NCBI GenBank assembly: GCA_050257045.1
Contig: JBLMWD010000074.1
Span: forward strand, 6,442 to 70,441
Source of the DNA: Bacteroidota bacterium
GTDB taxonomy: Bacteria; Eisenbacteria; RBG-16-71-46; SZUA-252
Length of the DNA: 64,000 nucleotides
Reading direction: 5' to 3'
Shown here piece after piece: positions 31,973 to 45,444 of the stretch. A model generated the notes under the pieces. It made no database searches. It was not told where the DNA came from and saw nothing but the letters and a program-made list of their open reading frames with translations. Position numbers and translations under genes: made by a program. The stretch's first letter is position 1. Each line of letters starts with the position of its first letter.

Positions 31973-32179
31973 TCAGGGCTTCTTCAGCGTTCCCGGCGGG
32001 AGTGTGGCGAGCCAGCGCACGAAGGCGAACCCCGCCGAGGCGAGCACCAGGCAGAGGAGCACGATGACCGCGAGCATCTTCCGGATGCGCGCGCGCACCG
32101 CCTTGTCCCGCCCGGGATCCAGCGCGGCCGGTTCCTGCGACGCCATCATCGAAGCCGTCCCCTTGCCCGACTCGCTCAC
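31973..32179 (-). CDS. Small single-TM protein (68 aa) closing the oxidase operon
   Basis: GTG overlaps the ctaG TGA by 4 nt; basic stretch followed by MLAVIVLLCLVLASAGFAFV. Confidence 0.55.
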   Translation of the reverse strand: MSESGKGTASMMASQEPAALDPGRDKAVRARIRKMLAVIVLLCLVLASAGFAFVRWLATLPPGTLKKP

Positions 32180-32769
32180 AGCGACTTCTTCCCCGCGAGC
32201 GGCGACTTGTCGCTCTCGTTCCGCGGGAAGAGCGTGTAGTTGAGCTGCACCTCGTTCACGCTGAGCGGCACGCGGGGCGAGAGGGCGAAGTAGACCGGCA
32301 GCACGCGCGTCTCGCGCGGCCCGAGCGCCTGGTCCTCGAAGCAGAAGCACTGGATCAGCTGGAATTCGCGCGCGGCCTCCACCGGCGCGATCGAGTGCAC
32401 CGCGCGGAAGAAGACCGAGTCGTCGCTCATGTTCGTGAACGTGTAGTCGAGGTGCACCGGGCGCCCCGGAATCGTGTGTACGAGCGGGACCGAGGGGCCG
32501 AACCGGATCGGAAGTCCCGTGGCCGAGACCCCCATGAACTTGACCTGGATGTCGCGGTTCTCGATCGGCTCGGTGGCCGAGGAGAGCGTGGCCGGCTCGC
32601 CCCAGGGACTCCCCTGGTACGCGGCCTTCCCCGCGCCGCCGAGTCCGAAACGGGCGCAGAAGAGCTTGAAGAGGGGAACGTTCGAGTAGGCGAAGCCGAA
32701 CATCACCGCGACCACGACGGCCATGCCCGCCGCGAGCGCCCCGTTCGAGAACCGCCGCTCGGAGGCCAC
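32176..32769 (-). CDS. ctaG: Cytochrome c oxidase copper chaperone, Cox11/CtaG type
   Basis: N-terminal TM, VPLFKLFC..FG.GG, QCFCFEDQ. Confidence 0.88.
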   Translation of the reverse strand: MASERRFSNGALAAGMAVVVAVMFGFAYSNVPLFKLFCARFGLGGAGKAAYQGSPWGEPATLSSATEPIENRDIQVKFMGVSATGLPIRFGPSVPLVHTIPGRPVHLDYTFTNMSDDSVFFRAVHSIAPVEAAREFQLIQCFCFEDQALGPRETRVLPVYFALSPRVPLSVNEVQLNYTLFPRNESDKSPLAGKKSL

Positions 32770-32770
32770 G

Positions 32771-33640
32771 CTACGAGCGGAGCGGGATGCGCCAGATCGC
32801 GTCGGCGATCATCCCGAGGAAGAGGACGAAGAGATAGACGATGGAGTAGGCGAAGACGTCCCGCGCCGCCCTCACCGTCGGCGCGCGTCGCGCCCGAAAC
32901 GCCTTCACCACGAACGCGGCGCCGAGGAAGAGCGCCGTCACCCCGAGCACGAGCCCGCCTGCGTTCGCGAACGGCATGAGGAGCGTCACGAGCACGAGCA
33001 CGAGCGTGTAGAGCTCGATCTGCCGGTAGGTCTCGGCCTCGCCCCGCACGATCGGGAGCATCGGGATCGCCACGCGCCGGTAATCGTCCTGGACGCAGAT
33101 CGCGAGCGCCCAGAAGTGGGGCGGCGTCCAGAGGAAGATCACGAGGAACATGAGCACGGGCGCGAGCGCCAAGTGCCCCGCCGCCGCGGCCCAGGCGATG
33201 ACCGGGCCCATGGCGCCCGCCGCGCCGCCGATCACGATGTTGTGCACGGTGCGCGGCTTGAGCCAGAGCGTGTAGAAGAAGCCATAGAAGGCGATCGTTC
33301 CGAACGCGAGCCAGGCGGCGAGCGGGCTGCCGTATTCCGCGAGCGCGACCACGGAGAGGACGCCGATCCCGATCGCGAAGGCGAGGGCGCGGCCGGGCGC
33401 GACCCGGTGGAGCGGCAGCGGGCGGCGCGCGCGCGTCCGCTCCATCTGCGCGTCGAGGTCGCGCTCGAAGTACTGGTTGAAGGCGTTCGCCGATCCGGCC
33501 GTCAGCATGATCGCGCCGAGCACGACCAGGAGGCGTAGCGGGTCGTGGAGGAGCGAGCGCTCGGTCACGACGCCGGCGAGCGCCGTGATCATGACGAGCG
33601 CCACGATCCGGGGTTTCGTCAGCTCGATGTAATCACGCAC
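32771..33640 (-). CDS. ctaB: Protoheme IX farnesyltransferase (heme o synthase)
   Basis: LTKPRI, NQYFERDLDAQMERTRARRPL, WTPPHFWAL, DDYRRVAIPMLP. Confidence 0.95.
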   Translation of the reverse strand: MRDYIELTKPRIVALVMITALAGVVTERSLLHDPLRLLVVLGAIMLTAGSANAFNQYFERDLDAQMERTRARRPLPLHRVAPGRALAFAIGIGVLSVVALAEYGSPLAAWLAFGTIAFYGFFYTLWLKPRTVHNIVIGGAAGAMGPVIAWAAAAGHLALAPVLMFLVIFLWTPPHFWALAICVQDDYRRVAIPMLPIVRGEAETYRQIELYTLVLVLVTLLMPFANAGGLVLGVTALFLGAAFVVKAFRARRAPTVRAARDVFAYSIVYLFVLFLGMIADAIWRIPLRS

Positions 33641-34556
33641 GGGACAGCTCGTAACTCGCCACGGTCAGGGTTCCGAACAGCATCAGCGCCGTGCCCAGAT
33701 GGCTGGCGCTCACGGGAAGCGGTACGCGGAGGACCACGTTGGCCACGCCCAGCAGGAACTGCACCGCCAGAAGTATACCCGATATCCGGAGGGGCCAGCG
33801 GGCCCGGGGCGGAAGGGCGACCGGCGCGGCCCGGAAGAGGAGCCCCAGCACGATGAGGACCACCGCGTAGGCGCCGAGCCGGTGGGCGTAGTGGATCCCG
33901 AGGAGCCCCTTCATCGGCGGGAGCCACATCCCCTGGCAGGTCGGGAAATCGGGGCAGGCGAGCGCCGCGCCCGACGAGGAAACCCAGCCCCCGAGCGCCA
34001 CCTGGACGAGCACCGCTCCGGCCGCGACGCGCGCCCAGACGGCGATCCCCCGGCGCTTCCCCGGGTCGACCGACGATCCCTCCCCCGAGGCCGCCGCCGG
34101 GGAGACGCCCGCAGCGTCCTCCGCGTCGCGGGCCACGAGCGCCATCCGGAGGAGAATCGCGAAGAAGAGGAACGCGATCAGGAGATGGGCCACCACCCGG
34201 TCGACGGGAAGCTCCTCGAGCACGACGCGCGCGCCCATGAAGACCTGGAGCCCGAGGGTGATCAGGGCGGCCACCGTGAGCGCGCCCAGGCGGCCGCGCC
34301 AGCGCGCGCTGCGGAAGACGAGGAAGGCGACCGCCAGGGTCGCGATCGAGACGAGGCCCGCGATGGCGCGGTGGGCGTACTCGATGAGGACGTTGTGCTG
34401 CGGCCGCGGGATCACCTTTCCCTGGTCGAGGGGCCAGTCGGGAATGGCCAGCCCGGATCCGGAGAGGCGGACCACGCCGCCCCAGACGACGAGCACGAAG
34501 ACGAGCAACAGGGTGATCCGGAGGACTGTGGCGAGGCGGTCCGACCCGCGGTTCAT
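33633..34556 (-). CDS. ctaA: Heme A synthase
   Basis: GGVVRLSGSGLAIPDWP, EYAHR, VAHL, CPDFPTC, IHYAHR, SHL. Confidence 0.88.
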   Translation of the reverse strand: MNRGSDRLATVLRITLLLVFVLVVWGGVVRLSGSGLAIPDWPLDQGKVIPRPQHNVLIEYAHRAIAGLVSIATLAVAFLVFRSARWRGRLGALTVAALITLGLQVFMGARVVLEELPVDRVVAHLLIAFLFFAILLRMALVARDAEDAAGVSPAAASGEGSSVDPGKRRGIAVWARVAAGAVLVQVALGGWVSSSGAALACPDFPTCQGMWLPPMKGLLGIHYAHRLGAYAVVLIVLGLLFRAAPVALPPRARWPLRISGILLAVQFLLGVANVVLRVPLPVSASHLGTALMLFGTLTVASYELSRA

Positions 34557-34596
34557 GGCTTCGGGCGGCGCGCGCGGCACCGCCGTTCATCGTCTC

Positions 34597-36210
34597 CTAT
34601 CGGATCACCGGGATCCGCGAGAAGTTCTCGGCGGGCGGCGGCGAGGAGATGGTCCATTCGAGCGTCTTGTTGTACTCGGCGTGATCCCAGGGATCGACCG
34701 GGGCGCGCTTGCCGCGCCAGAGGCTCATGAGGACGTTGATCAGGAAGATGCTCATCGCGACGAAGAGGATCCCGGCCCCGATCGTGGAGATCTGGTTCAG
34801 CCCCTCGTACTGGGGCTTGTACGTGTAGATGCGCCGCGGCATCCCGAGCATCCCCATCACGTGCATCGGCATGAACACCACGTTCATCCCGATGAAGGTC
34901 AGCCAGAAGTGCACCTTCCCCATGAGCTCGTTGTACATCTTTCCCGAGATCTTGGGGAACCAGTAGTAGAAGCCGGCCATGATCCCCATCAGCGAGCCGC
35001 CGAAGAGGACGTAGTGGAGGTGGGCCACGACGAAGTAGGTGTCGTGCACCTGCACGTCGAAGGGCACCAGGGCGAGCCACACGCCCGTGATCCCGCCGAT
35101 GATGAAGAGGCAGATGAAGCCGAGGGCGAAGAGCATCGGCGTCCGGAAGCGGATCGCGCCGCCCCAGACCGTGGCGAGCCACGACCAGATCTTCACGCCG
35201 GTCGGCACCGCGATGACCATCGAGGCCAACGAGAAGAAATAGCGGAGGTTCTTGTCGATGCCCACGGCGAACATGTGGTGTCCCCAGACCAGGAACCCGA
35301 TGAAGCCGATCCCCGCCGTCGCGAACACCATCCCCTTGTAACCGAAGAGCGGCTTGTCGGAGAGCGAGGGGAGCACCTGCGAGATCATCCCCATGGCCGG
35401 GAGCACCATGATGTAGACCGCGGGATGGGAGTAGAACCAGAAGAGGTGCTGCCAGAGCACCGGGTCGCCGCCGGCGGCCGGGTGGAAGAAGCCGGTCCCG
35501 AAGAGGCGGTCGGTGAGGAGCATCGTGAGCCCGCCCGCGAGCACCGGGGTCGCGATCAGGATGATCATCTGCGTGATGATCACGTTCCAGCAGAACATCG
35601 GCATCTTCATGAGCGTCATGCCGGGGGCGCGGAGGTTCAGGATCGTCACGACGAAGTTGATCCCGCCGAGGATCGACGAGAGCCCCGCGAGATGGAGTCC
35701 CAGGATCCAGAGGTCGACGCCCGGACCCGGCGAGAACTGCCGGTCGGAGAGCGGCGGATAGTTGGTCCAGCCGGCCGCGGCCGCGCCGCCCTGGAGCAGG
35801 AGGCTCGTCAGCATGAAGCCGCCCGCCGGCACGAGGAGCCAGAACGAGATCGCATTCAGGCGCGGGAAGGCCATGTCGCGCGCCCCGATCTGGATCGGCA
35901 CGACGTAGTTCGAGATCCCCGCGAGCACCGGGATGGTCCAGAAGAAGACCATGAACGTGCCGTGCAGCGACATGATCTGGTTGTAGATCTCGGGGTGGAG
36001 CAGGTGGAGCCCCGCCTTCGAGAGCTGGGCCCGCATGACCATCGCGAAGGCCCCGGCGATGAAGAAGAAGGTGAACGACAGCCAGAGGTACATGACCCCG
36101 ATCAGCTTGTGATCGGTCGTGAGCAGATACTTGAGAATCCCCGTCCGCGGCTTCGGCCCGACGTGGACGACCTCGGTCGGGACCGGCCCGACCAGCGTGC
36201 CCGCTTCCAT
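34597..36210 (-). CDS. ctaD: Cytochrome c oxidase subunit I, heme-copper family A2
   Basis: TTDHKLIG, HGTFM, GARDMAFPRLN (D-channel), FWFYSHPAVY (YS motif of A2), VWGHHMF, PTGVK (K-channel), VAHLHYV. Confidence 0.97.
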   Translation of the reverse strand: MEAGTLVGPVPTEVVHVGPKPRTGILKYLLTTDHKLIGVMYLWLSFTFFFIAGAFAMVMRAQLSKAGLHLLHPEIYNQIMSLHGTFMVFFWTIPVLAGISNYVVPIQIGARDMAFPRLNAISFWLLVPAGGFMLTSLLLQGGAAAAGWTNYPPLSDRQFSPGPGVDLWILGLHLAGLSSILGGINFVVTILNLRAPGMTLMKMPMFCWNVIITQMIILIATPVLAGGLTMLLTDRLFGTGFFHPAAGGDPVLWQHLFWFYSHPAVYIMVLPAMGMISQVLPSLSDKPLFGYKGMVFATAGIGFIGFLVWGHHMFAVGIDKNLRYFFSLASMVIAVPTGVKIWSWLATVWGGAIRFRTPMLFALGFICLFIIGGITGVWLALVPFDVQVHDTYFVVAHLHYVLFGGSLMGIMAGFYYWFPKISGKMYNELMGKVHFWLTFIGMNVVFMPMHVMGMLGMPRRIYTYKPQYEGLNQISTIGAGILFVAMSIFLINVLMSLWRGKRAPVDPWDHAEYNKTLEWTISSPPPAENFSRIPVIR

Positions 36211-36214
36211 GCCT

Positions 36215-36919
36215 CTAGGCTCCCCTCTTCTTCTGCTCGATCCAGCGGGCAAATTCCTCGGGCGGGACCACGTTCACCGTGATGAACATCTCCGCATGGA
36301 GGACGCCGCAGAGCTCGGCGCACTGTCCTCGGTAGGTCCCGGGCTGATCCACGCGGAACCAGGTGTGGTTCACGCGCCCGGGGTTGGCGTCCATTTTGAC
36401 ACCGAAATCGGGAAGGAACCAGGAGTGCACGACGTCGATCGACGTCACGTCGGCGGCGATGGTCTTCCCGGCCGGGATCACGAGCGGCTCGTTCGCGAAG
36501 ACCACCCCGTAGCCCGGGTAGCGGTACTCCCAGAACCACTGGTGCCCGATGATCTCGACGGTCATGTCCGACTTGGGAACCGTCTCGAGGTAGTGGAGCG
36601 TCGAGAACGACGGGCCCGCGAGGTAGAGGAGGGCGGCCACCGGGACCGCCGTCCAGAGGATCTCGAGGCGCAGGTTCTCGTGGAAGGTCGCCGCTTTCAC
36701 CCCCGGCTTCGCCCGGAAGCGGACGATCACGACCAGGAGGAGCCCCTCGGCGATGAGCAGGAAGAAGGAGGTGACGATCACCGCCTTGAACCAGAGGCTC
36801 CGGACCTCGTGCGCGACGGGGGTCGCGGGGTGGAGGAGCCACGCGAAGGCAGCCGGCGCGATGAGGAGGCCGGCGAGAATGCCGAGGATGGCGAGCCACC
36901 GGGGGGAGCGGGGCGTCAT
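36215..36919 (-). CDS. ctaC: Cytochrome c oxidase subunit II (CuA; no fused cytochrome c)
   Basis: GHQWFWEYRY, DVVHSW, CAELCGVLHAEM; the protein ends right after the CuA domain. Confidence 0.95.
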   Translation of the reverse strand: MTPRSPRWLAILGILAGLLIAPAAFAWLLHPATPVAHEVRSLWFKAVIVTSFFLLIAEGLLLVVIVRFRAKPGVKAATFHENLRLEILWTAVPVAALLYLAGPSFSTLHYLETVPKSDMTVEIIGHQWFWEYRYPGYGVVFANEPLVIPAGKTIAADVTSIDVVHSWFLPDFGVKMDANPGRVNHTWFRVDQPGTYRGQCAELCGVLHAEMFITVNVVPPEEFARWIEQKKRGA

Positions 36920-36926
36920 GCGCATG

Positions 36927-36932
36927 ATTGTA
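36927..36932 (-). promoter_or_regulatory. Putative internal -10 box TACAAT 7 nt before ctaC ATG (36919)
   Basis: Sits in the short gap after the diheme cytochrome stop codon. Confidence 0.5.
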
Positions 36933-38036
36933 CTAGCTCCGTGCGCCCGCGGCACTCGCGAGCCGGGCGCGCAGCGATTGGGTGAAGTCGTAGAGCGCCC
37001 GGATCTGGTCGGACGTGAGGTCCCCGTTGGCGGGCATCATACCCCCCGAGAGGCCGTAGAGGATGACGCGCTGGAACGAGGCGGCGTCGCCGGAGAGCGG
37101 TCCCTGCGCGGCGAGGCTTCGGGTGGTGAGATAGACGTAGGGCGCCGACCCCATGATGCGCGTGCGCACGCCGCCCTGGCCCCACGGGCCGTGGCAGGAG
37201 GCGCAGCGCGCGGCGTAGAGCATCCCGCCCTCGCTCGAGTCGGCCGGCGCGCCCGTCATCGCCGCCGCGGCGGCCGGAGCCGGCCGCTGGGCGATCAGCG
37301 CCATCGCGCGTGCGATCGGGATCGTGTCGCCCGGGGCCGGGCCGGTCGCGACGGCCGTGCTCGCGCCCGCGCCGCCAGCCTTCTTGCCGCCGCCAAACTG
37401 GTCGAGCCACGCGAGGTCCTCGGGCTTGTCGGCTTCCTGCTTCGAGGGATTGAACGTGCGCACGTAGTGGGCCAGCGCGAAGCGGTCCTCGAGCGGGATG
37501 CCGGGGAACGGCGCCATGGCGGTTCCCGGCGAGCCGTTCGTGATCGTCTGCACGATGCGCGCGACGCCGCCGCCGTAGCGCCAGTATCCCGACGTGTAGT
37601 CGCGCGGCTTGGGATTGAGGGCGGACGCGGCCGGGCCGTCCCCCTTGCCGTCCGTGCCGTGGCACGAGGCGCAGTTCACGTCGAAGATGCTCTTCCCTTT
37701 CGCGATCAGCGCGGGGGTCGGCTTGAGGAGCGCCTGGACGTCGACCGACGCGGCCTGCTGCGTGCCGCCGCCGGCCGCGCCACCGGGCGCCGCGGCCTCG
37801 CCGCCGCCCTTTCCGGAGCGGAGCCCGGCCGTGTACATGAGGCCCGCCACGACGGCGATGACGACGCCGGTGAAGAGGAACTGCGCGATCGCGACCGTTC
37901 CCGGGAGCCGGTCGCGGTCGGGTGCTGCGGTGTGCCGCGGCGCGTCATGCCCCGCTCCGGCGGCGTGCTCGGTGGTTCCGACGATCCGGCCGGCCGAACC
38001 CGGCGCGGGCTCCTGCGGCGTCTGGTATTCGGTCAT
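36933..38036 (-). CDS. Membrane-anchored diheme cytochrome c
   Basis: ATG 38036 overlapping the actF stop; one TM helix; CASCH at 37659-37673 and 37191-37205, each followed by a candidate distal Met (GTAM, GGMMP). Confidence 0.88.
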   Translation of the reverse strand: MTEYQTPQEPAPGSAGRIVGTTEHAAGAGHDAPRHTAAPDRDRLPGTVAIAQFLFTGVVIAVVAGLMYTAGLRSGKGGGEAAAPGGAAGGGTQQAASVDVQALLKPTPALIAKGKSIFDVNCASCHGTDGKGDGPAASALNPKPRDYTSGYWRYGGGVARIVQTITNGSPGTAMAPFPGIPLEDRFALAHYVRTFNPSKQEADKPEDLAWLDQFGGGKKAGGAGASTAVATGPAPGDTIPIARAMALIAQRPAPAAAAAMTGAPADSSEGGMLYAARCASCHGPWGQGGVRTRIMGSAPYVYLTTRSLAAQGPLSGDAASFQRVILYGLSGGMMPANGDLTSDQIRALYDFTQSLRARLASAAGARS

Positions 38037-39244
38037 CCGTGGAACCTCACGCTCGACTCGTAGGCGGGGTCGCCGACCGGCGAGACCGGATGGCGCGAGA
38101 GGAACCCGAGCACGATCCAGCCGAAGAGGCCGAGGAAGCCGAGCGTGACGCCGATCTCGGTCCATCCGAAGACCACCTGCTCCGGCGAGAACGCCGGGAG
38201 GATCACCCAGTAGAGGTCGAGCCACTGTCCGATCAGGACGATGGAGCAGACCGCGATCAGCCAGTTCCCGCTCTCCTTCACCTTGACCGGCATCAGCGCG
38301 AAGAACGGAATGCCGAACTTGCAGACCATGAGAGCGATCCCGATCAAGCCCCATCCGGTGTACGTGCGCGGGATGAACCAGACCGTCTCCTCGGGCAGGT
38401 TCCCGTACCAGATGAGCATGAACTGGGAGAAGGCGATGTACATCCAGAAGATCGAGAAGGCGAAGACGTACTTCCCGAGGTCCTGGTAGTGGAACCGGCT
38501 CACGATCCCGGCGAGCGCGCCCTGGCGGCGCAGGAGGACCACGGCGATCGCGAGCGCGGCGAGCAGGCTCTGCCAGGCTCCCGCGAAGCAGTAGACCCCG
38601 AACATCGTGCTGTACCAGAGCGGCTCGAGCGACATCAGGAGGTCGAACCCCAGGAGCGTGAGCGTGACCGCGAAGAGCACGATGAAGATCGGCGCCACGC
38701 GGAGGCTCTTCTTCGTGAGCGCCGGGTCGCGCGTGGCGTCCTGGCGCGTCGAGTTCCGCACGAAGTACCAGGCGAAGAGGCTCCAGACCGCGAGGATCAC
38801 GAGGTTCCGGACCGTGAAGAACGGAACCGAGAGGTAGCCGCCCTTCGTGACGTGCTCCGCCGCGACGTCGGCTCCCACGGGAGGGTTCGACCAGACGTAG
38901 AGCTTCGGCACCCCCACGAGGAGGATCACGAAGAGGAGGAGCGCGTACGGCAGGTACGACGTGAAGGCCTCGGCCACGCGCCGGACCACCACGCTCCAGG
39001 TCGCACCGACCAGGTAGTGGAGCGCCGTGAAGAAGACGCCGGCGACGGCGAGGAAAAGGAAGTAGACGTAGCCGAGCAGGAACGCCGCGTAGGCGCGCGT
39101 CGCGTCGCCGCCGCCGTAGTACTCGATCAGGAAGCTCACGATCCCGAGCAGGATGAAGATCCCGAACATCGCCTTGATCCCGCCCGGAACGGCGAGCGGC
39201 TCCGCGGCGCGGACCGGGGCGGCGTGCGAAGCGTGGCCGCTCAT
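38033..39244 (-). CDS. actF: Alternative complex III membrane subunit ActF
   Basis: About 10 TM; MSLEPLWYSTMFG, DLGKYVFAFSIFWMYIAFSQFMLIWYGNLPEE. Confidence 0.92.
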   Translation of the reverse strand: MSGHASHAAPVRAAEPLAVPGGIKAMFGIFILLGIVSFLIEYYGGGDATRAYAAFLLGYVYFLFLAVAGVFFTALHYLVGATWSVVVRRVAEAFTSYLPYALLLFVILLVGVPKLYVWSNPPVGADVAAEHVTKGGYLSVPFFTVRNLVILAVWSLFAWYFVRNSTRQDATRDPALTKKSLRVAPIFIVLFAVTLTLLGFDLLMSLEPLWYSTMFGVYCFAGAWQSLLAALAIAVVLLRRQGALAGIVSRFHYQDLGKYVFAFSIFWMYIAFSQFMLIWYGNLPEETVWFIPRTYTGWGLIGIALMVCKFGIPFFALMPVKVKESGNWLIAVCSIVLIGQWLDLYWVILPAFSPEQVVFGWTEIGVTLGFLGLFGWIVLGFLSRHPVSPVGDPAYESSVRFHG

Positions 39245-39912
39245 CGTCCACTCCCGGCAACCGGGGCCGCCCCGGCCTGGGAGCTGTCCGCGGGCGCGGC
39301 CGCGGGCTTCGCCTTGGCCGGCAGATCCTGGGGCAAGGGGCGGGCCGCGCGCTGCAGCGCGCGCACGTACCAGATGACCGCCCAGCGGTCCTCGGGGAGG
39401 ATCTGCGACGCGTAGCTCGGCATGAGGTTCTGTCCCCGCGTGATGACGTGGAAGATCCGCGAGTCGGGCCAGTTCCGCACCTTGTCCGAGAAGAGGACCG
39501 GCGGCTGCGGGAAGATCGGGACGATGTACCCCTGCCCGTCCCCGCGCGGACCGTGGCAGACGACGCAGGTGTTCATGTAGACGCGCTGCCCGCGCCCGAT
39601 CACGTCGGGCGTCGGCTGGAGCGGATTGACCAGCGCCGCCATCGCCTGGGTCGTGTCGGCCTGGGCGAAGCGGTACGGCGTGATGTCGCGCGGCACGGTC
39701 CCCTCGACGGGAGGCCGCTCCACCGAATAGCCGGGACGGAGCGGGTCCTCGTGCTGCGCCGCGAGGCGCGGCCCGTAGGCCATGTTCGGCATGTACTCGA
39801 TCGCGGGCTGCCGCTTCGAGCAGCCGGCCGCGAAGGCGAGGGCCGCGAGGAGCAGCGCGCCGGCGGCGGCGTCCGCGCCGCGACGCGCGACCCGGGCTCG
39901 TCCGTTACGCAC
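39241..39912 (-). CDS. actE: Alternative complex III monoheme cytochrome c lipoprotein ActE
   Basis: Lipobox AAG-C; YMPNMAY, PVEGTVPR, CVVCHG, GQNLMPSYA, DRWAVIWYVRALQ. Confidence 0.9.
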   Translation of the reverse strand: MRNGRARVARRGADAAAGALLLAALAFAAGCSKRQPAIEYMPNMAYGPRLAAQHEDPLRPGYSVERPPVEGTVPRDITPYRFAQADTTQAMAALVNPLQPTPDVIGRGQRVYMNTCVVCHGPRGDGQGYIVPIFPQPPVLFSDKVRNWPDSRIFHVITRGQNLMPSYASQILPEDRWAVIWYVRALQRAARPLPQDLPAKAKPAAAPADSSQAGAAPVAGSGR

Positions 39913-40444
39913 GGATCACCCGCACGTCGGTGGCGCCCGTGGACTGGAGGAACTGCAGCGCCCGGCTCTCGTTCCACCCCGGTCCGACGTCCGGGAGGAA
40001 GAGCGCGAAGCGGTCGTCCGTGAGCGAGCGGTCGAGGATCGGCGCCCCCAGGTTCGGGAGCCCGCACGCGATCAGCAGCGCCGCGAGCGTCATCGTGCCC
40101 CCGATCAGCACCCCCGACTCGAACATGACCGGGATGAACGCCGGGAGGGAGACGAACGGCTTCCCGCCGACGTTGATCGGCCAGTCGATCGCCGACGTCC
40201 AGATCTCGAAGGTGAGCCCCAGGATCGCTCCGGAGAGTCCCATCACCAGCGTGACGTACGGCACCCACGACTTCTTGATGCCGAGCGCCTCGGAGAGGCC
40301 GTGCACCGGATAGGGCGTGAACGCGTCGGCGTTCCGGAAGCCGTGCTCCCGGACGCGCGCAGCGGCGCCGAGGAGCGTGTCGGGATTGTCGTAGAGAGCG
40401 AGCACCCCGCGGAGCGGCTTCGGCTTGCGGAAGAGGTCAAACAT
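39905..40444 (-). CDS. actD: Alternative complex III subunit ActD (DUF3341)
   Basis: [31 protein letters not shown]. Confidence 0.92.
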
Positions 40445-41894
40445 GGGCGCCCTCCCGCTCGGGCGGATGCGGCGCCGGGGGCGCCATCCCCGCCCGATGC
40501 TTCGACGTCCAGAGGACCGACTTCACCTCGGCGATCGAGATCGTCGGGAAGAAGCGGCAGAAGAGCAGGAACCACATGAAGAAGAACCCGAACGATCCGG
40601 CCGTCACGGTCCAGTCGAACACGGTCGGCTTGTAGTACGACCAGTTCACCGGCAGGAAGTCGCGGTGGAGCGACGTCACGATGATGTTGAACCGCTCGAA
40701 CCACATCCCGATGTTCACGCAGATCGAGACGGCGAACATGATCGGGAGGCTCCGGCGGAGGCGGCGGAACCAGAAGAGCTGCGGGATGATCACGTTGCAG
40801 GTGATCATCGTCCAGTAGGCCCAGGCGAACGGCCCCGTGGCGCGGTTGATGAACGTGAACGCCTCGAACTGGTTCCCGCTGTACTGCGCGATGAAGAACT
40901 CGGTGGCGTACGCATAGCCGACCATCATCCCCGTGACCAGGATGATCTTGTTCATGTTCTCGAGGTGATGGATCGTCACGTATTCCTGGAGACGGAAGAC
41001 CTTGCGCAGGATCACGAGGAGCGTGACCACCATCGCGAACCCGGAGAAGATGGCTCCGGCCACGAAGTAGGGCGGGAAGATCGTCGTGTGCCAGCCCGGG
41101 AGGATCGCCGTCGCGAAGTCGAAGGAGACCACGCTGTGCACCGAGAGCACGAGCGGCGTCGAGAGGCCCGCGAGCATCATGTAGGCGCGCTCGTAATGCT
41201 GCCAGTGCCGCTCCGAGCCGCGCCATCCGAGCGAGAGGACTCCATAGATCGCCCGCTTCCAGCCGCTCGAGCGATCGCGGATCGTCGCGAAGTCGGGAAT
41301 CAGCCCCGTGTACCAGAAGCAGAGGGAGATCGTGAAGTAGGTGCTCACCGCGAAGACGTCCCAGACGAGCGGCGAGCGGAAGTTCACCCAGAGGAAGCGC
41401 CAATTCGGGTACGGCACGAGCCAGTAGGCGAACCAGGGGCGCCCGGTGTGGATGAGCGGGAAGAGCCCCGCGGTCATGACCGCGAAGATCGTCATCGCCT
41501 CCGCCGAGCGGTTGATCCCGGTGCGCCACCGCTGGCGGAAGAGGTGGAGGATCGCCGAGATCAGCGTGCCGGCGTGTCCGATGCCGATCCAGAAGACGAA
41601 GTTGGTGATGTAGACGCCCCACCCGACGGGGTGGTTGATCCCGAGGATCCCGAGCCCCTTGTTGATCTGGTACGTCACCGTCGCGGCCATCGCGAGGAAG
41701 AGGAGCACCGAGATGCTGAAGAAGACGAGCCAGAGCGGACCCGGCTTCGTGTCGATCGGCGCGCTCACCTCGGTGGAGACGTCGGAGAAGCTCTTGCGCG
41801 GGTCGATGAGGAGCGGCTCGGCGAGCGGCAGCACGGGCTCGGTGAGCGCCGGCGCCCCGGTCCGCAGTTCTTCGGCGGCGGTCGTGGGGTTCAC
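40437..41894 (-). CDS. actC: Alternative complex III quinol-oxidising subunit ActC (NrfD/PsrC family)
   Basis: [58 protein letters not shown]. Confidence 0.95.
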
Positions 41895-44800
41895 GCGTTC
41901 GCCTCCTCGCGGTTCCGGACCTTGGTCATGTAGGTGATCGAGGGGAGCGTGTTCAGGTCGGCGAGCACGGTGTAACCCCGCTGGTTCTTCGCCATCCCCG
42001 CGACATGGCTCTTCGCGTCGTTCTGGTCGCCAAACGTGATCGCCTGGGTCGGGCAGGTCTGCTGGCAGGCGGTGACGATGTCCCCCTCCTGCACGGGGAT
42101 GTTCAGCGCCTTCGCGCGCTCCTTCGCGTCACGGATCCGCTGCACGCAGAAGGTGCACTTCTCCATGATCCCCTTCGTGCGCACGGTCACGTCGGGGTTC
42201 AGCACGAGCCGGAGCGACTTGGGCTTGTCGGTGTAGTCGAACCAGTTGAACCGGCGCACCTTGTAGGGGCAGTTGTTGGAGCAGTAGCGCGTCCCGACGC
42301 AGCGGTTGTAGACCTGGATGTTGAGGCCCTCGCTCGAGTGCACCGTGGCGAGCACCGGGCAGACCGTCTCGCACGGCGCGTTCTCGCACTGCTGGCAGAG
42401 CATCGGCTGGTAGACCGTCTCCGGATTCTCCGCCGGGCCCGAGTAGTAGCGGTCGATGCGGAGCCAGTGCATCTCGCGCCCCTTCAGCACGACGCTCTTC
42501 CCCACCGCGGGGACGTTGTTCTCCACCATGCAGGCGATCATGCAGGCGCTGCACCCGGTGCAGGCGTTCAGGTCGATCGCCATGCCCCACTTGTGCCCGG
42601 GGTACTTGTGCCGCGTCCACATCGAGGGAAGGAGCTCGCCCCCCTCGTTCCCCGCCCCCGGGTCGCGCTGCCACTCGGAAAACGTGGTCTCGTAGATGAT
42701 CGGGCGCCCCTCGGTGTACTGGTGCCCCTGGACGCAGGCCATCTTCGCGATCCGCCCGGTCCGCGTGACGCGCACGGGGATGCCCGCGAGGCCCACGCGA
42801 CCGGCGGTCGCTTCGGCGAGGGCGAATCCGTTCTGCCCGACCTTGTCGCCGACCACGCCCGACCCGGTCCGGCCGTAGCCGAGGGGGATCGCGACGACGT
42901 CATCGTGGAGGCCGGGCTGGACGTGGACCGGGAGGTCGAACCGGGCGTGTCCCACGTCGATCGTGACCACGTCGGACTTCATCTCGTATTCGGCGACGCC
43001 GAGCTGGCGCGCGCGGTTGGGCGAGATGGCCGCGAAGTTGTCCCAGACGATCTTCGAGACCGGGTCGGGCAGCTCCTGGAGCCAGGCGTTGTTCGCGCTC
43101 CGTCCGTCGGCGAGCGTGTTCGACGGATAGAGGACGAGCGTGAGGGCTCCGTTCGTCGGCGCGTTCCCCGTCGGGAGCGCCGCCGGAATGCCGGCCGCCT
43201 TCGGCGAGCGCGTCGTACCGCCCCGCTCGTTCTCCTCGCCGCGCGCGATCACGCCGGCCCGGAGCGCCCCTTCCCAGAAGAGGTCGAACGGGGCAGCGGC
43301 GCCAGCGCCGGGATAGACCTGGGTCCGCCACCGCTCGCGCAGGTACTCGTGGTAGGAGCCGGCCGTCTCCGCCAGCGGCCCGCGGCCGAGATAGCGCGAC
43401 CACGCGAGGAGCGAGTCCTGGAACGAGCGCACGTCGTAGAGCGGCGCGATCGCGGGCTGCATCAGCGAGACGACGCCCGCGCGCGGCGCGTGGTCGTCCC
43501 ACGATTCGAGGTAATGGGTGACCGGCGCCACCACGTCGGCGAGCCGCGCCGTCTCGTCCGCCCGGTCGGACATGCTCGCGATGAACGGGACCCGCTTCGC
43601 CGCGTCCGCGAAGCCGACCGCGGCCGGGAGCGAGTACGCCGGGTTCGTGCCGTAGACGAGGAGCGCCTGGATCTCGCCGGCGCGCATCCGCTCGACCAGC
43701 CGGAGCATATCCTCGTCGGAGCCGAGCGTCGCGCCCGAGGGGCGCGAGGCGTCGACGGTGATCCCCTCGTTCCCGAGGGCGCTGTTGATCACGTTCGCCG
43801 CGACCTGGAGCGCCACCGCGTGGGCCGCCGGCGCCGCGTTCGGATCGGCGAGAACGAGGCTTCGCCCGCGCGACTGCGAGAGCTCGTCCGCGATCGAGGC
43901 GATCGTCCCGGCCGGCAGGTCGGCGGCGGACTCGACGGCGTCGGCGGTGTAGCCGCCCCCGGCCGAGCCGGCGCCCACGGCGCCGTGCGCGCCGAGCCGG
44001 TCGGCGAGCGCCATCGCGAACGGATAGAGCTGGTCGGGACGGACGCGGACGCGCCGGTCGGCGTTCGTGCCGGTCAGGGTCAGGATCGACTCCACCGCGA
44101 TCACGCGCGACATCGGCCCCGACTCCGGCCGGCGGCGCTTCGCGAAATCGCGGTTCTGCTCGACCGTCGAGAGGAACGTGCCGAGCGGGTCGGCGCCGAG
44201 CGTCACGAGGACGTCGGCCTTGTCGAGCCGGTAGCGCGGCACCGCGCGCTCGCCGTACGTCGTCTCGCTCGCGCGCGCCACCGCGTCGTTGGAGACGCCC
44301 TCGTAGGCGACGTGCTCGGCCGACGGGAAGCCGGCGAGGAAATCGTGGATCAGGGCCTGCGTCGAGGGGCTCGCCATGGTGCCGGTGAGGAGGACGATCC
44401 GCCCGCCGCCGTCACGCGCGCGGCGGAGTCCGACCGTCACGCGCTTGTCGCAGGGCCCCCATCCGACGGAGGTGGTCTTCCCCGTGGCGCGGTCGACCGT
44501 GACCGGGCCTTTCAGGCGGTCGGGGTCGTAGAGGTTGATCACCGACGCCTGCCCGCGCGCGCACAGCGTGCCGCGGTTCACCGGATGGTCCGGATTCCCC
44601 TCGAGCTTGATCGGGCGCCCCTCGCGCGTCTTCACGAGGAGGCCGCATCCATTCGCGCACTCGCCGCAGGTGGAGGCGTAGTAGACCGGGTTCCCGGGCG
44701 ACATGTCCTCGGGCGCCTTCACGTACGGGAGGATCTTCTCGATGGGCTTTCGCGCGCAGCCGGCGGCGAGGAACGTCGCGCCGACGCCCACGAGCTTCAG

Positions 44801-44941
44801 GAAGTCGCGCCGCGAGGGCGCCGTGACCTCTTCCGAGGGGGTCAGGAATTCCTGGCTGCGAAGCTCCTCGACGCGCGGGGAACCCTCCAGCTCCTCGACC
44901 GTGGACCAGTGCTTCGGAGGGCGTCCGTCTACATGTGGCAT
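41891..44941 (-). CDS. actB: Alternative complex III subunit ActB (molybdopterin-oxidoreductase-like domain plus Fe-S domain)
   Basis: Start re-called to ATG 44941; Tat motif SRRDFLK then AAG-C; C-terminal [43 protein letters not shown]...CQQTCP. Confidence 0.93.
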
Positions 44942-45444
44942 GTGTTGCACTCCGTCGAGGCCTTGTTCTGGCGGTGGCACTGGATGCACCACCCCATCTT
45001 CAGATTCGCGTACTGCCGCACCTCGTCCTCGGTCTCGACGGGTCCGTGGCACTTCTGGCAGGTGAAGCCCTTCGCCACGTGCCAGCGGTGGCTGAAGTAG
45101 ACGTAGTCGGGGAGGCGGTGGATCCGGACCCACGGGACCGGCTTGTCGGCCTGGTAGAGCGCCGTGAGCTCCTTGATCGCGGGGCGGTCCGTGCGCGCCA
45201 CGGTGTGGCAGTTCATGCAGACGTTCATCGAGGGCACGGTGGCGTGCCGCGAGTGCTCGGCGCTCGAGTGGCAGTAGAGGCAGGGGATCTTCCGCGTGCC
45301 TGCGTGCAGCTTGTGGCTGAAGGCGATCGGCTGCTTCGGCATGTAGCCGACGTTCGAGAACGAGTCGAAGAACGCCCACGCCCCCACGGCCAGCAGAACC
45401 AGGACGAGAAGCGGCAATAACCTTCTTGAGCTCTGTTCGCTCAC
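44929..45444 (-). CDS. actA: Alternative complex III pentaheme cytochrome c ActA
   Basis: One N-terminal TM; QPIAFSHKLHAG; five CXXCH (CLYCH, CMNCH, CQKCH, CIQCH, CNTCH). Confidence 0.95.
   Translation of the reverse strand: MSEQSSRRLLPLLVLVLLAVGAWAFFDSFSNVGYMPKQPIAFSHKLHAGTRKIPCLYCHSSAEHSRHATVPSMNVCMNCHTVARTDRPAIKELTALYQADKPVPWVRIHRLPDYVYFSHRWHVAKGFTCQKCHGPVETEDEVRQYANLKMGWCIQCHRQNKASTECNTCHM

Follow-up and report, generated by a model that had tools for sequence, protein, structure and literature searches.

The window, a stretch of 64,000 nucleotides of contig JBLMWD010000074.1 from a bacterium of the Eisenbacteria lineage, encodes a membrane-anchored diheme cytochrome c (positions 36933-38036, minus strand) between actF of an alternative complex III (ACIII) and ctaC of an aa3-type oxidase. 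We consider it likely, with some reserve, that this protein is a dedicated membrane-tethered relay, leading electrons from the heme wire of ACIII to CuA of an aa3 oxidase that has no cytochrome c of its own. Conserved synteny, complementarity with caa3-type CtaC and a fusion to oxidase subunit IV lead us to this reading, as does the finding that ActE and QcrC are the closest folds; the three former are direct observations, as are the architecture, the heme motifs and the packing of the operon.

How ACIII hands electrons over to the oxidase is still debated. Documented solutions are soluble carriers, transfer from ActE to the heme of a caa3 oxidase, and a sixth, mobile heme on ActA; if our reading is true, the family would represent a fourth and apparently common one, separately anchored and equipped with one or two hemes. 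That a tethered c-type cytochrome may wire a complex III to an oxidase is known already, whereas the family itself is apparently new, judged by the literature searched, as are its architecture, the either/or relation with caa3 and the swapping of its anchor. There we found no description of the cytochrome following actF as a family, a prior mention in the Refojo reviews of 2010 and 2013 being possible, and no paper joining Eisenbacteria and ACIII.

Architecture of the anchored cytochrome

The gene is genuine, as established by 270 homologues at E<=1e-3 among those scored and by family alignments in which conservation is centred on the heme ligands. It is read from the minus strand; the plus-strand reading of the same interval is an Arg/Gly-rich artefact. 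The ATG overlaps the stop of actF (GGATGA), with GAGG 8 nt upstream, and 7 nt separate the TAG from the likely ATG of ctaC. Two Pfam families, PF13442 (76.6 bits, cut-off 27) and PF00034 (72.9 bits, cut-off 21.3), each match in two stretches, corresponding to heme domains D1 and D2, of which D2 by itself matches PF13442 at E 6e-10; together with the CxxCH motifs and distal methionine this makes the protein a class I c-type cytochrome. An AlphaFold model from a 47-sequence alignment reached a mean predicted local distance difference test score (pLDDT) of 77.6; an earlier model from 26 close sequences had a mean of 54 and left D2 unmodelled. The features are as follows, all on the minus strand.

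36933..38036, including the stop: diheme cytochrome c gene, 367 amino acids (aa), ATG at 38036 and TAG at 36935-36933
37911..38036: residues 1-42, predicted cytoplasmic N-terminal tail of varying length among relatives, pLDDT <50-55
37812..37910: residues 43-75, single transmembrane helix (anchor) with a conserved AQF..T motif, pLDDT 78-95
37749..37811: residues 76-96, flexible Gly/Ala-rich linker, assigned by composition, pLDDT <50 at 77-93
37392..37748: residues 97-215 (about), heme domain D1 (PF13442/PF00034), pLDDT 88-97
37659..37673: heme motif 1, CASCH 122-126 (C122, C125, H126), invariant in 47 sequences
37515-37517: distal ligand of D1, Met174, invariant in 47 sequences
37242..37391: residues 216-265, Ala/Gly/Pro-rich inter-domain linker of variable length, assigned by composition, pLDDT <50 at 223-236
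37287..37325: residues 238-250, short conserved linker helix TIPIARAMALIAQ, resembling the ActG signature HIPIDRAMDL
36936..37241: residues 266-367 (about), heme domain D2, class I cytochrome c, pLDDT 80-96
37191..37205: heme motif 2, CASCH 278-282 (C278, C281, H282), from motif search and alignment
37035-37040: candidate distal ligands of D2, Met333/Met334, a position that varies among relatives

The first-pass annotation, made from the letters alone, had proposed a transmembrane anchor, a Gly/Ala linker, a first heme domain, an Ala/Pro linker and a second heme domain, and this anatomy is confirmed by Pfam, model and composition: 15 of the 20 residues at 77-96 are G or A, and 32 of 51 in the sampled stretch 216-266 are A, G or P. 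The DRDR charges directly before the helix fit an N-in topology, which would leave both heme domains facing the periplasm. In the model, D2 is confident from about 266 to 360, and low confidence is confined to the N-terminal tail and to 77-93 and 223-236; with a predicted template modelling score (pTM) of 0.46, the domains are not placed confidently relative to each other. The conserved core of the family is D1, which belongs to the ActE/CcoP-like class I cytochromes c and holds the invariant LNPKPR motif. The residues invariant in the 47 sequences are Gly114, C122, C125, H126, M174 and the glycines 127, 130, 132 and 134, and further L140-N141-P142, P144 and R145 (LNPKPR), Gly155, Thr164, Gly168 and Ala244. 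Within the linker helix, I239, P240 and A244 are invariant in one alignment (A1), A244 also in the 47-sequence one (A3).

Alternation with caa3-type oxidases within the phylum

In the family of the window, represented by 40 other genomes in a phylum sample of 201, full-length orthologues (49-80% identity) are present in 38 genomes spanning four genera; these family tallies include one unpublished genome (G015), on which no individual claim depends. In the other 17 families of the sample the diheme cytochrome drew only weak single-domain matches, and ActF was found in 151 of the 201 genomes. At 29 family loci (L003-L031) the order actE-actF-diheme-ctaC-ctaD is retained wherever the contig permits. 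Identity across these loci is 46-75% for the cytochrome, as compared with 58-89% for ActF, 66-89% for CtaC and 70-93% for CtaD, so the cytochrome evolves faster than its three neighbours.

We then compared 20 ActF regions from nine other families of the phylum. Seventeen of these, from eight families (f3, f4, f6, f9, f12, f13, f15 and f16), consist of actF, a gap of 0.4-1.5 kb, ctaC and ctaD, and in every one a CxxCH motif lies just beyond the ctaC match, within an open frame whose length would suffice for a subunit II of the caa3 type; the anchored cytochrome is found in none of the 17. One cluster, L113, was read gene by gene: its gap contains genes for a 109-aa single-helix protein and SCO (PF02630, E 3.4e-7), and its CtaC bears a heme-c domain. 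A small ActG-like protein resembling that of L113 occurs in 12 further clusters. The three remaining regions, all from f2, have ACIII without an adjoining oxidase. The CtaC of the window (246 aa) consists of COX2_TM and COX2 domains only and has no CxxCH, hence no c domain C-terminal to CuA of the kind that defines a caa3-type subunit II, and ActA of the window has five CxxCH and no sixth; the first-pass annotation had said as much of both proteins. Within the phylum, the anchored diheme cytochrome thus alternates with a heme c on CtaC, although the genomes are related and the complementarity is therefore a pattern rather than a statistical test.

Occurrence beyond the phylum and variant forms

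A wider scan, in which each species was represented by one genome, confirmed 551 relatives, of which the best 80 loci were examined; taxon names refer to labels of metagenome-assembled genomes (MAGs). The gene is not special to the window genome, as the family is found after actF in MAGs with about eight phylum labels. Three arrangements were distinguished, with a five-heme ActA in all of them.

Type A, 26 loci (Eisenbacteria, Zixibacteria, Sumerlaeota, Calditrichota, one Ignavibacteria and a few likely mis-binned labels): actABCDEF, a diheme protein of 314-365 aa with one transmembrane helix, ctaC without heme, ctaD
Type B, 38 loci (Ignavibacteria, Melioribacter and "Bacteroidetes" MAGs): actABC, an actD-E fusion, actF, a monoheme protein of ~310 aa with one transmembrane helix and a heme-less D2 remnant, then SCO, ctaD, ctaE, ctaF and ctaC without heme
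Type C, 9 loci (Bdellovibrionota, Oligoflexia): actCDEF, SCO, ctaC with heme c, ctaD, ctaE and a protein with three transmembrane helices carrying D1, the helix and D2

In the clusters of types A and B with the gene after actF (Zixibacteria, Sumerlaeota, Calditrichota, Ignavibacteria/Melioribacter), CtaC is heme-less wherever its gene is on the contig, and among the 80 loci no homologue was found away from an ACIII or oxidase cluster. The first-pass annotation had named synteny of act clusters as a check on its proposal; the gene order is indeed kept in the family, and homologues follow actF in other phyla. The three helices of the type C protein are PF03626, the prokaryotic cytochrome oxidase subunit IV (E 1e-11 to 1e-15), its periplasmic part shares 35-42% identity with the window protein across both domains, and the fusion sits at the end of the ACIII-cox cluster. 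A module that one lineage has joined covalently to an oxidase subunit, and that elsewhere comes directly after actF, is as expected for a part of the ACIII-oxidase interface.

Two further forms delimit the conserved portion. A MAG labelled Holophagaceae encodes a 230-aa form that ends shortly after the conserved helix, and one labelled Cloacimonadota a triheme form (L105:9821-11089), in which two caa3-like c domains in tandem extend the anchor-D1-helix core; thus anchor, D1 and helix form the core, with an exchangeable C-terminal part. The triheme gene follows ctaD-ctaC-ctaB, and no ACIII genes were seen in the stretch fetched. A search for long fused forms (644-2000 aa) returned generic cytochrome c domain matches only.

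Melioribacter roseus Mros0040, a type B member, has been listed as "ActE", with Mros0042 described as an ActD-ActE fusion (PMC3534657, 2013), and later multi-omics work does not discuss Mros0040 (PMC5492636). Mros0040 is an orthologue of the anchor-D1-helix core in the same place after actF; it differs from the window protein in having one heme and a heme-less D2 remnant at the C-terminus, with SCO as the next gene and ctaC after ctaD-E-F. The true ActE of type B is the ActD-ActE fusion. The gene was reported earlier, yet not recognised as a separate family. Labels such as "c-type cytochrome" or "ActE" on the gene following actF conceal a distinct family. The fusion is ~380 aa in Ignavibacteria/Melioribacter (L088:7432-8571 and other type B loci).

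Clusters 54-65% identical to that of the window occur in MAGs labelled Limnocylindrales, Hyphomicrobiales, Binatia and Dormiibacterota (L032, L034, L036, L037); these look like Eisenbacteria contigs in wrong bins. As a separate observation, the ACIII-aa3 module of the window's family shares 45-47% identity in ActF and 58-62% in CtaD with Zixibacteria/Ignavibacteria MAGs (L054, L055, L060), as opposed to 30-44% and 34-46% with the ACIII-caa3 modules of sister Eisenbacteria (L113-L131). The module is thus closer to other phyla than to sister families, which may mean that the module was transferred as a whole or goes back to an ancient duplication. One family member (G052) has three ActF genes.

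Domain relationships and closest known systems

Profile comparison with hhalign aligns D1 with ActE at E 3e-24 and with D2 at E 4e-18 (D2 with D1 at E 5e-19), and D2 with ActE and with caa3 c domains at about 2.5e-9 each. Since D1 is 40-55% identical between phyla and ~30% identical to ActE, it represents an ActE-like domain in a family of its own. Judged from these alignments, D2 probably arose by an old duplication of D1; derivation of D2 from the caa3 heme-c domain was rejected, D2 being nearest to D1. By sequence, the closest proteins of solved structure are a Kuenenia diheme protein (6H5L_B), CcoP, ActE (6F0K, 6LOD, 8K9E, 6BTM) and QcrC, and by fold 6H5L_B, QcrC of bcc-aa3 supercomplexes and ActE. 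Assignment to QcrC (NF050122, 43.8 bits against a cut-off of 200), to CcoP (TIGR00782, 62.4 bits against 179.95), or to the diheme peroxidase and cytochrome c4 types was rejected on curated NCBIfam cut-offs.

QcrC (7QHM, 6ADQ, 7RH6) is among the closest known systems, being anchored, having two class I c domains and wiring a quinol oxidoreductase to CuA of aa3 without a soluble carrier. However, QcrC partners a Rieske/b complex, has a C-terminal anchor and keeps its domains packed, whereas the window protein sits with ACIII, is anchored N-terminally and has a linker of ~50 residues between its domains. ActE (6F0K_E, 6LOD_E, 8K9E_E, 6BTM_E) shares the fold of the homologous D1 and the operon, but has one heme, a lipid anchor and a gene between actD and actF, as opposed to the two hemes, helical anchor and position after actF seen here; a separate true ActE is also present in the window (39241-39912).

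Cytochrome cy of Rhodobacter and c552 of Paracoccus consist of a class I cytochrome c tethered by a flexible Ala/Pro-rich linker to an N-terminal anchor. The likeness to the window protein is one of architecture only. They are monoheme, partner bc1 and are not encoded inside a complex III operon; an engineered CcoP-cy fusion (6XKX) is among the sequence matches in the Protein Data Bank (PDB). The sixth-heme domain of ActA in F. johnsoniae and the heme-c domain of Rhodothermus marinus caa3 have the same proposed task, that of the last c-type heme before CuA. They are fused to ActA or CtaC, while the candidate relay of the window is a polypeptide in its own right, independently anchored and carrying two hemes.

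An ActG-like helix in the linker

The 109-aa sister protein encoded after actF matches chain G of 8K9E ("ActG") through VHIPIDRAMDL (E 1.9e-4), and the 13 ActG-like sister proteins align with a conserved LNSYGWVD...IPIDRAMEL. A comparable element is present in the inter-domain linker of the window protein, DLAWLDQF...TIPIARAMALIAQ, and in type B proteins as Y-x11-IPV..A(M/I), with the spacing of ActG. When the ActG-like proteins were compared with the diheme alignment by hhalign, the motif ranked first (E 4.8e-5, probability 68%, 14 columns), and it was the top match also against separate profiles of types A, B and C (E 3e-4 to 5e-3). A hidden Markov model (HMM) of the motif only placed the diheme open reading frame (ORF) second of 31,934 six-frame ORFs of the genome, but at E 0.92, and its top match lay inside the cytochrome after actF in 24 of the 28 loci with any match. 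Run against all genome ORFs, the full-length ActG HMM detected no separate ActG and gave no significant match, ranking the diheme ORF 13th (E 21); phmmer searches of the PDB with the window linker and with the tail of the minimal Holophagaceae form did not retrieve ActG. The signal is thus weak yet consistent. That an IPIxRAM-like motif is present in the subunit-IV-fused forms too counts against kinship with ActG.

ActG of Chloroflexus aurantiacus (8K9E_G) and the window protein share a gene position directly after actF, a single N-terminal membrane helix and perhaps a periplasmic helix of the IPIxRAM kind. ActG is ~100-150 aa and cofactor-free, in contrast to 367 aa and two hemes here, and the likeness is limited to ~14 residues and statistically weak. 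On these grounds we tentatively suggest, at somewhat less than even chances, that the diheme cytochrome may be a cytochrome-bearing ActG, a derivative of a described subunit. The first-pass annotation had the gene occupying the slot of actG or sco as an alternative to them; the position after actF is indeed the same, though the ActG-like motif raises the possibility that the occupant itself derives from ActG. It had also held that its proposal would fall if the protein were an already described ACIII subunit, a point that is touched by the weak motif.

A bolder proposal, possible but doubtful, is that of a previously unrecognised class of ACIII subunit, in which an ActG anchor and docking helix would carry a one- or two-heme extension hard-wiring ACIII to aa3 in an obligate supercomplex. 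The module would have moved in evolution between an anchor on the ACIII side (the ActG-like helix) and one on the oxidase side (subunit IV, Bdellovibrionota), and the plain ActG of caa3-type clusters would be its ancestor or a heme-less remnant. The family may also explain the purpose of ActG.

Proposed electron transfer and alternative explanations

In R. marinus, ActE donates to the heme of caa3 (PMC5928083). The proposed donor to aa3 in F. johnsoniae is the mobile domain of ActA that carries the sixth heme, and ActE is dispensable there (PMC8552683). These papers confirm the three known links between ACIII and oxidase that the first-pass annotation had listed, namely ActE, an extra heme domain on ActA and the caa3 heme. 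For the window we propose that a periplasm-facing diheme class I cytochrome c, anchored by one N-terminal helix, would be made together with ACIII and the aa3-type oxidase from one tightly packed operon. Electrons would pass from menaquinol through the ActC site, the iron-sulfur clusters of ActB and the five hemes of ActA to the heme of ActE, and onwards via heme D1 and heme D2 to CuA of CtaC. D1 would be the proximal heme, probably adjoining the heme wire of ACIII, where the linker helix IPIxRAM (ActG-like) may dock it. D2, on its Ala/Pro-rich tether, would act as a distal mobile donor to the oxidase, taking the part that elsewhere falls to the heme c fused to subunit II of caa3 oxidases or to the sixth-heme domain of ActA in Flavobacterium. 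The two-heme bridge put forward in the first-pass annotation gains comparative support from synteny, complementarity with caa3 and the subunit IV fusion; physical association with the two complexes, the order of transfer and the mobility of D2 are what we infer. The dedicated relay between ACIII and aa3 is a testable candidate for bioenergetics; the family has cultivated carriers in Melioribacter roseus and probably Ignavibacterium.

Several observations weigh against such a relay. In Bdellovibrionota the module stands alongside a heme-c-fused CtaC, and hence the complementarity is not absolute. The heme of D2 is lost in Ignavibacteria, making a two-heme relay not the conserved feature of the family. 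The distal ligand position of D2, read in L063, L065, L079, L059, L052 and L054 and in P0004, P0005, P0010 and P0014, is mostly Met, but also His (Sumerlaeota and four close relatives, GGMHP) or Lys (one Bdellovibrionota, one Zixibacteria), a variation that suggests differing potentials or roles and hints at bis-His or other ligation. The related genomes are, moreover, non-independent observations, and the dispensability of ActE in F. johnsoniae leaves the route inside ACIII itself unsettled. Finally, the genome has three further homologues of heme-copper oxidase subunit I (C40:42572-43912, C40:81403-82770 and C116:7849-9099), four COX1 in all, and three cytochrome b genes (C33, C15 and C125), indicating a branched respiratory chain in which other partners are possible.

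Such branching would suit a general-purpose anchored carrier, akin to cytochrome cy or c552 in its N-terminal anchor, flexible linker and class I domain, that takes electrons from several donors (ACIII, bc-type complexes) and serves several acceptors (other oxidases, periplasmic reductases), its place in the operon reflecting co-regulation only. We regard this as unlikely, given the strict synteny with actF and cox genes across many phylum labels, the covalent fusion to oxidase subunit IV and the complete confinement of the homologues in 80 loci to ACIII or oxidase clusters. Quite improbable, too, is a mainly structural ACIII subunit equivalent to ActG, whose hemes would form a side branch (an entry for periplasmic donors or an electron buffer) while ActE supplies the oxidase directly. 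The ActG-like helix and gene position, direct donation by ActE in R. marinus and the loss of the D2 heme in Ignavibacteria agree with it. The acceptor in R. marinus is, however, the heme-c domain of caa3, which is missing from the window CtaC; the heme ligands of D1 are invariant in 47 of 47 sequences, and the sister families with a plain ActG all have a caa3-type CtaC.

We give very little credence to a second ActE, that is, a paralogue in the place of ActE, in line with the orthologue label in the Melioribacter genome paper. D1 is certainly most similar to ActE, both by hhalign and in its PDB matches, and Mros0040 was published under that name. Nevertheless, every cluster has a canonical lipoprotein-type ActE between actD and actF, D1 is more alike across phyla than it is to ActE, and anchor type, gene position and the extra domain all differ.

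The ACIII-oxidase operon of the window

The ACIII and oxidase genes are all on the minus strand and mostly overlap or lie a few bases apart.

44929-45444, minus: actA, 171 aa, five CxxCH
41891-44941, minus: actB, with twin-arginine (Tat) export signal SRRDFLKL
40437-41894, minus: actC
39905-40444, minus: actD
39241-39912, minus: actE, canonical monoheme subunit with a lipobox-like AAGC
38033-39244, minus: actF, its stop overlapping the start of the cytochrome gene
36215..36955, minus: ctaC, likely start ATG 36925, oxidase subunit II with a CuA site and without heme c
34597-36252, minus: ctaD
33633-34580, minus: ctaA/COX15
32771-33640, minus: ctaB
32176-32769, minus: cox11

Translation of actB starts at ATG 44941, inside the 3' end of actA, and an AAGC after its Tat signal is a possible lipobox (44791-44941). 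In ORF lists, ctaA is hidden by a longer out-of-frame ORF (33619-34590). The oxidase part (ctaC-ctaD-ctaA-ctaB-cox11, 32176-36955) is without a gene for subunit III, subunit IV or SCO. COX3 matches in the genome are on other contigs (C81, C40), the sole SCO-like match, sub-threshold, is on C10, and one of the cytochrome b genes has a weak cytochrome c match (C15:10817-11092) nearby.

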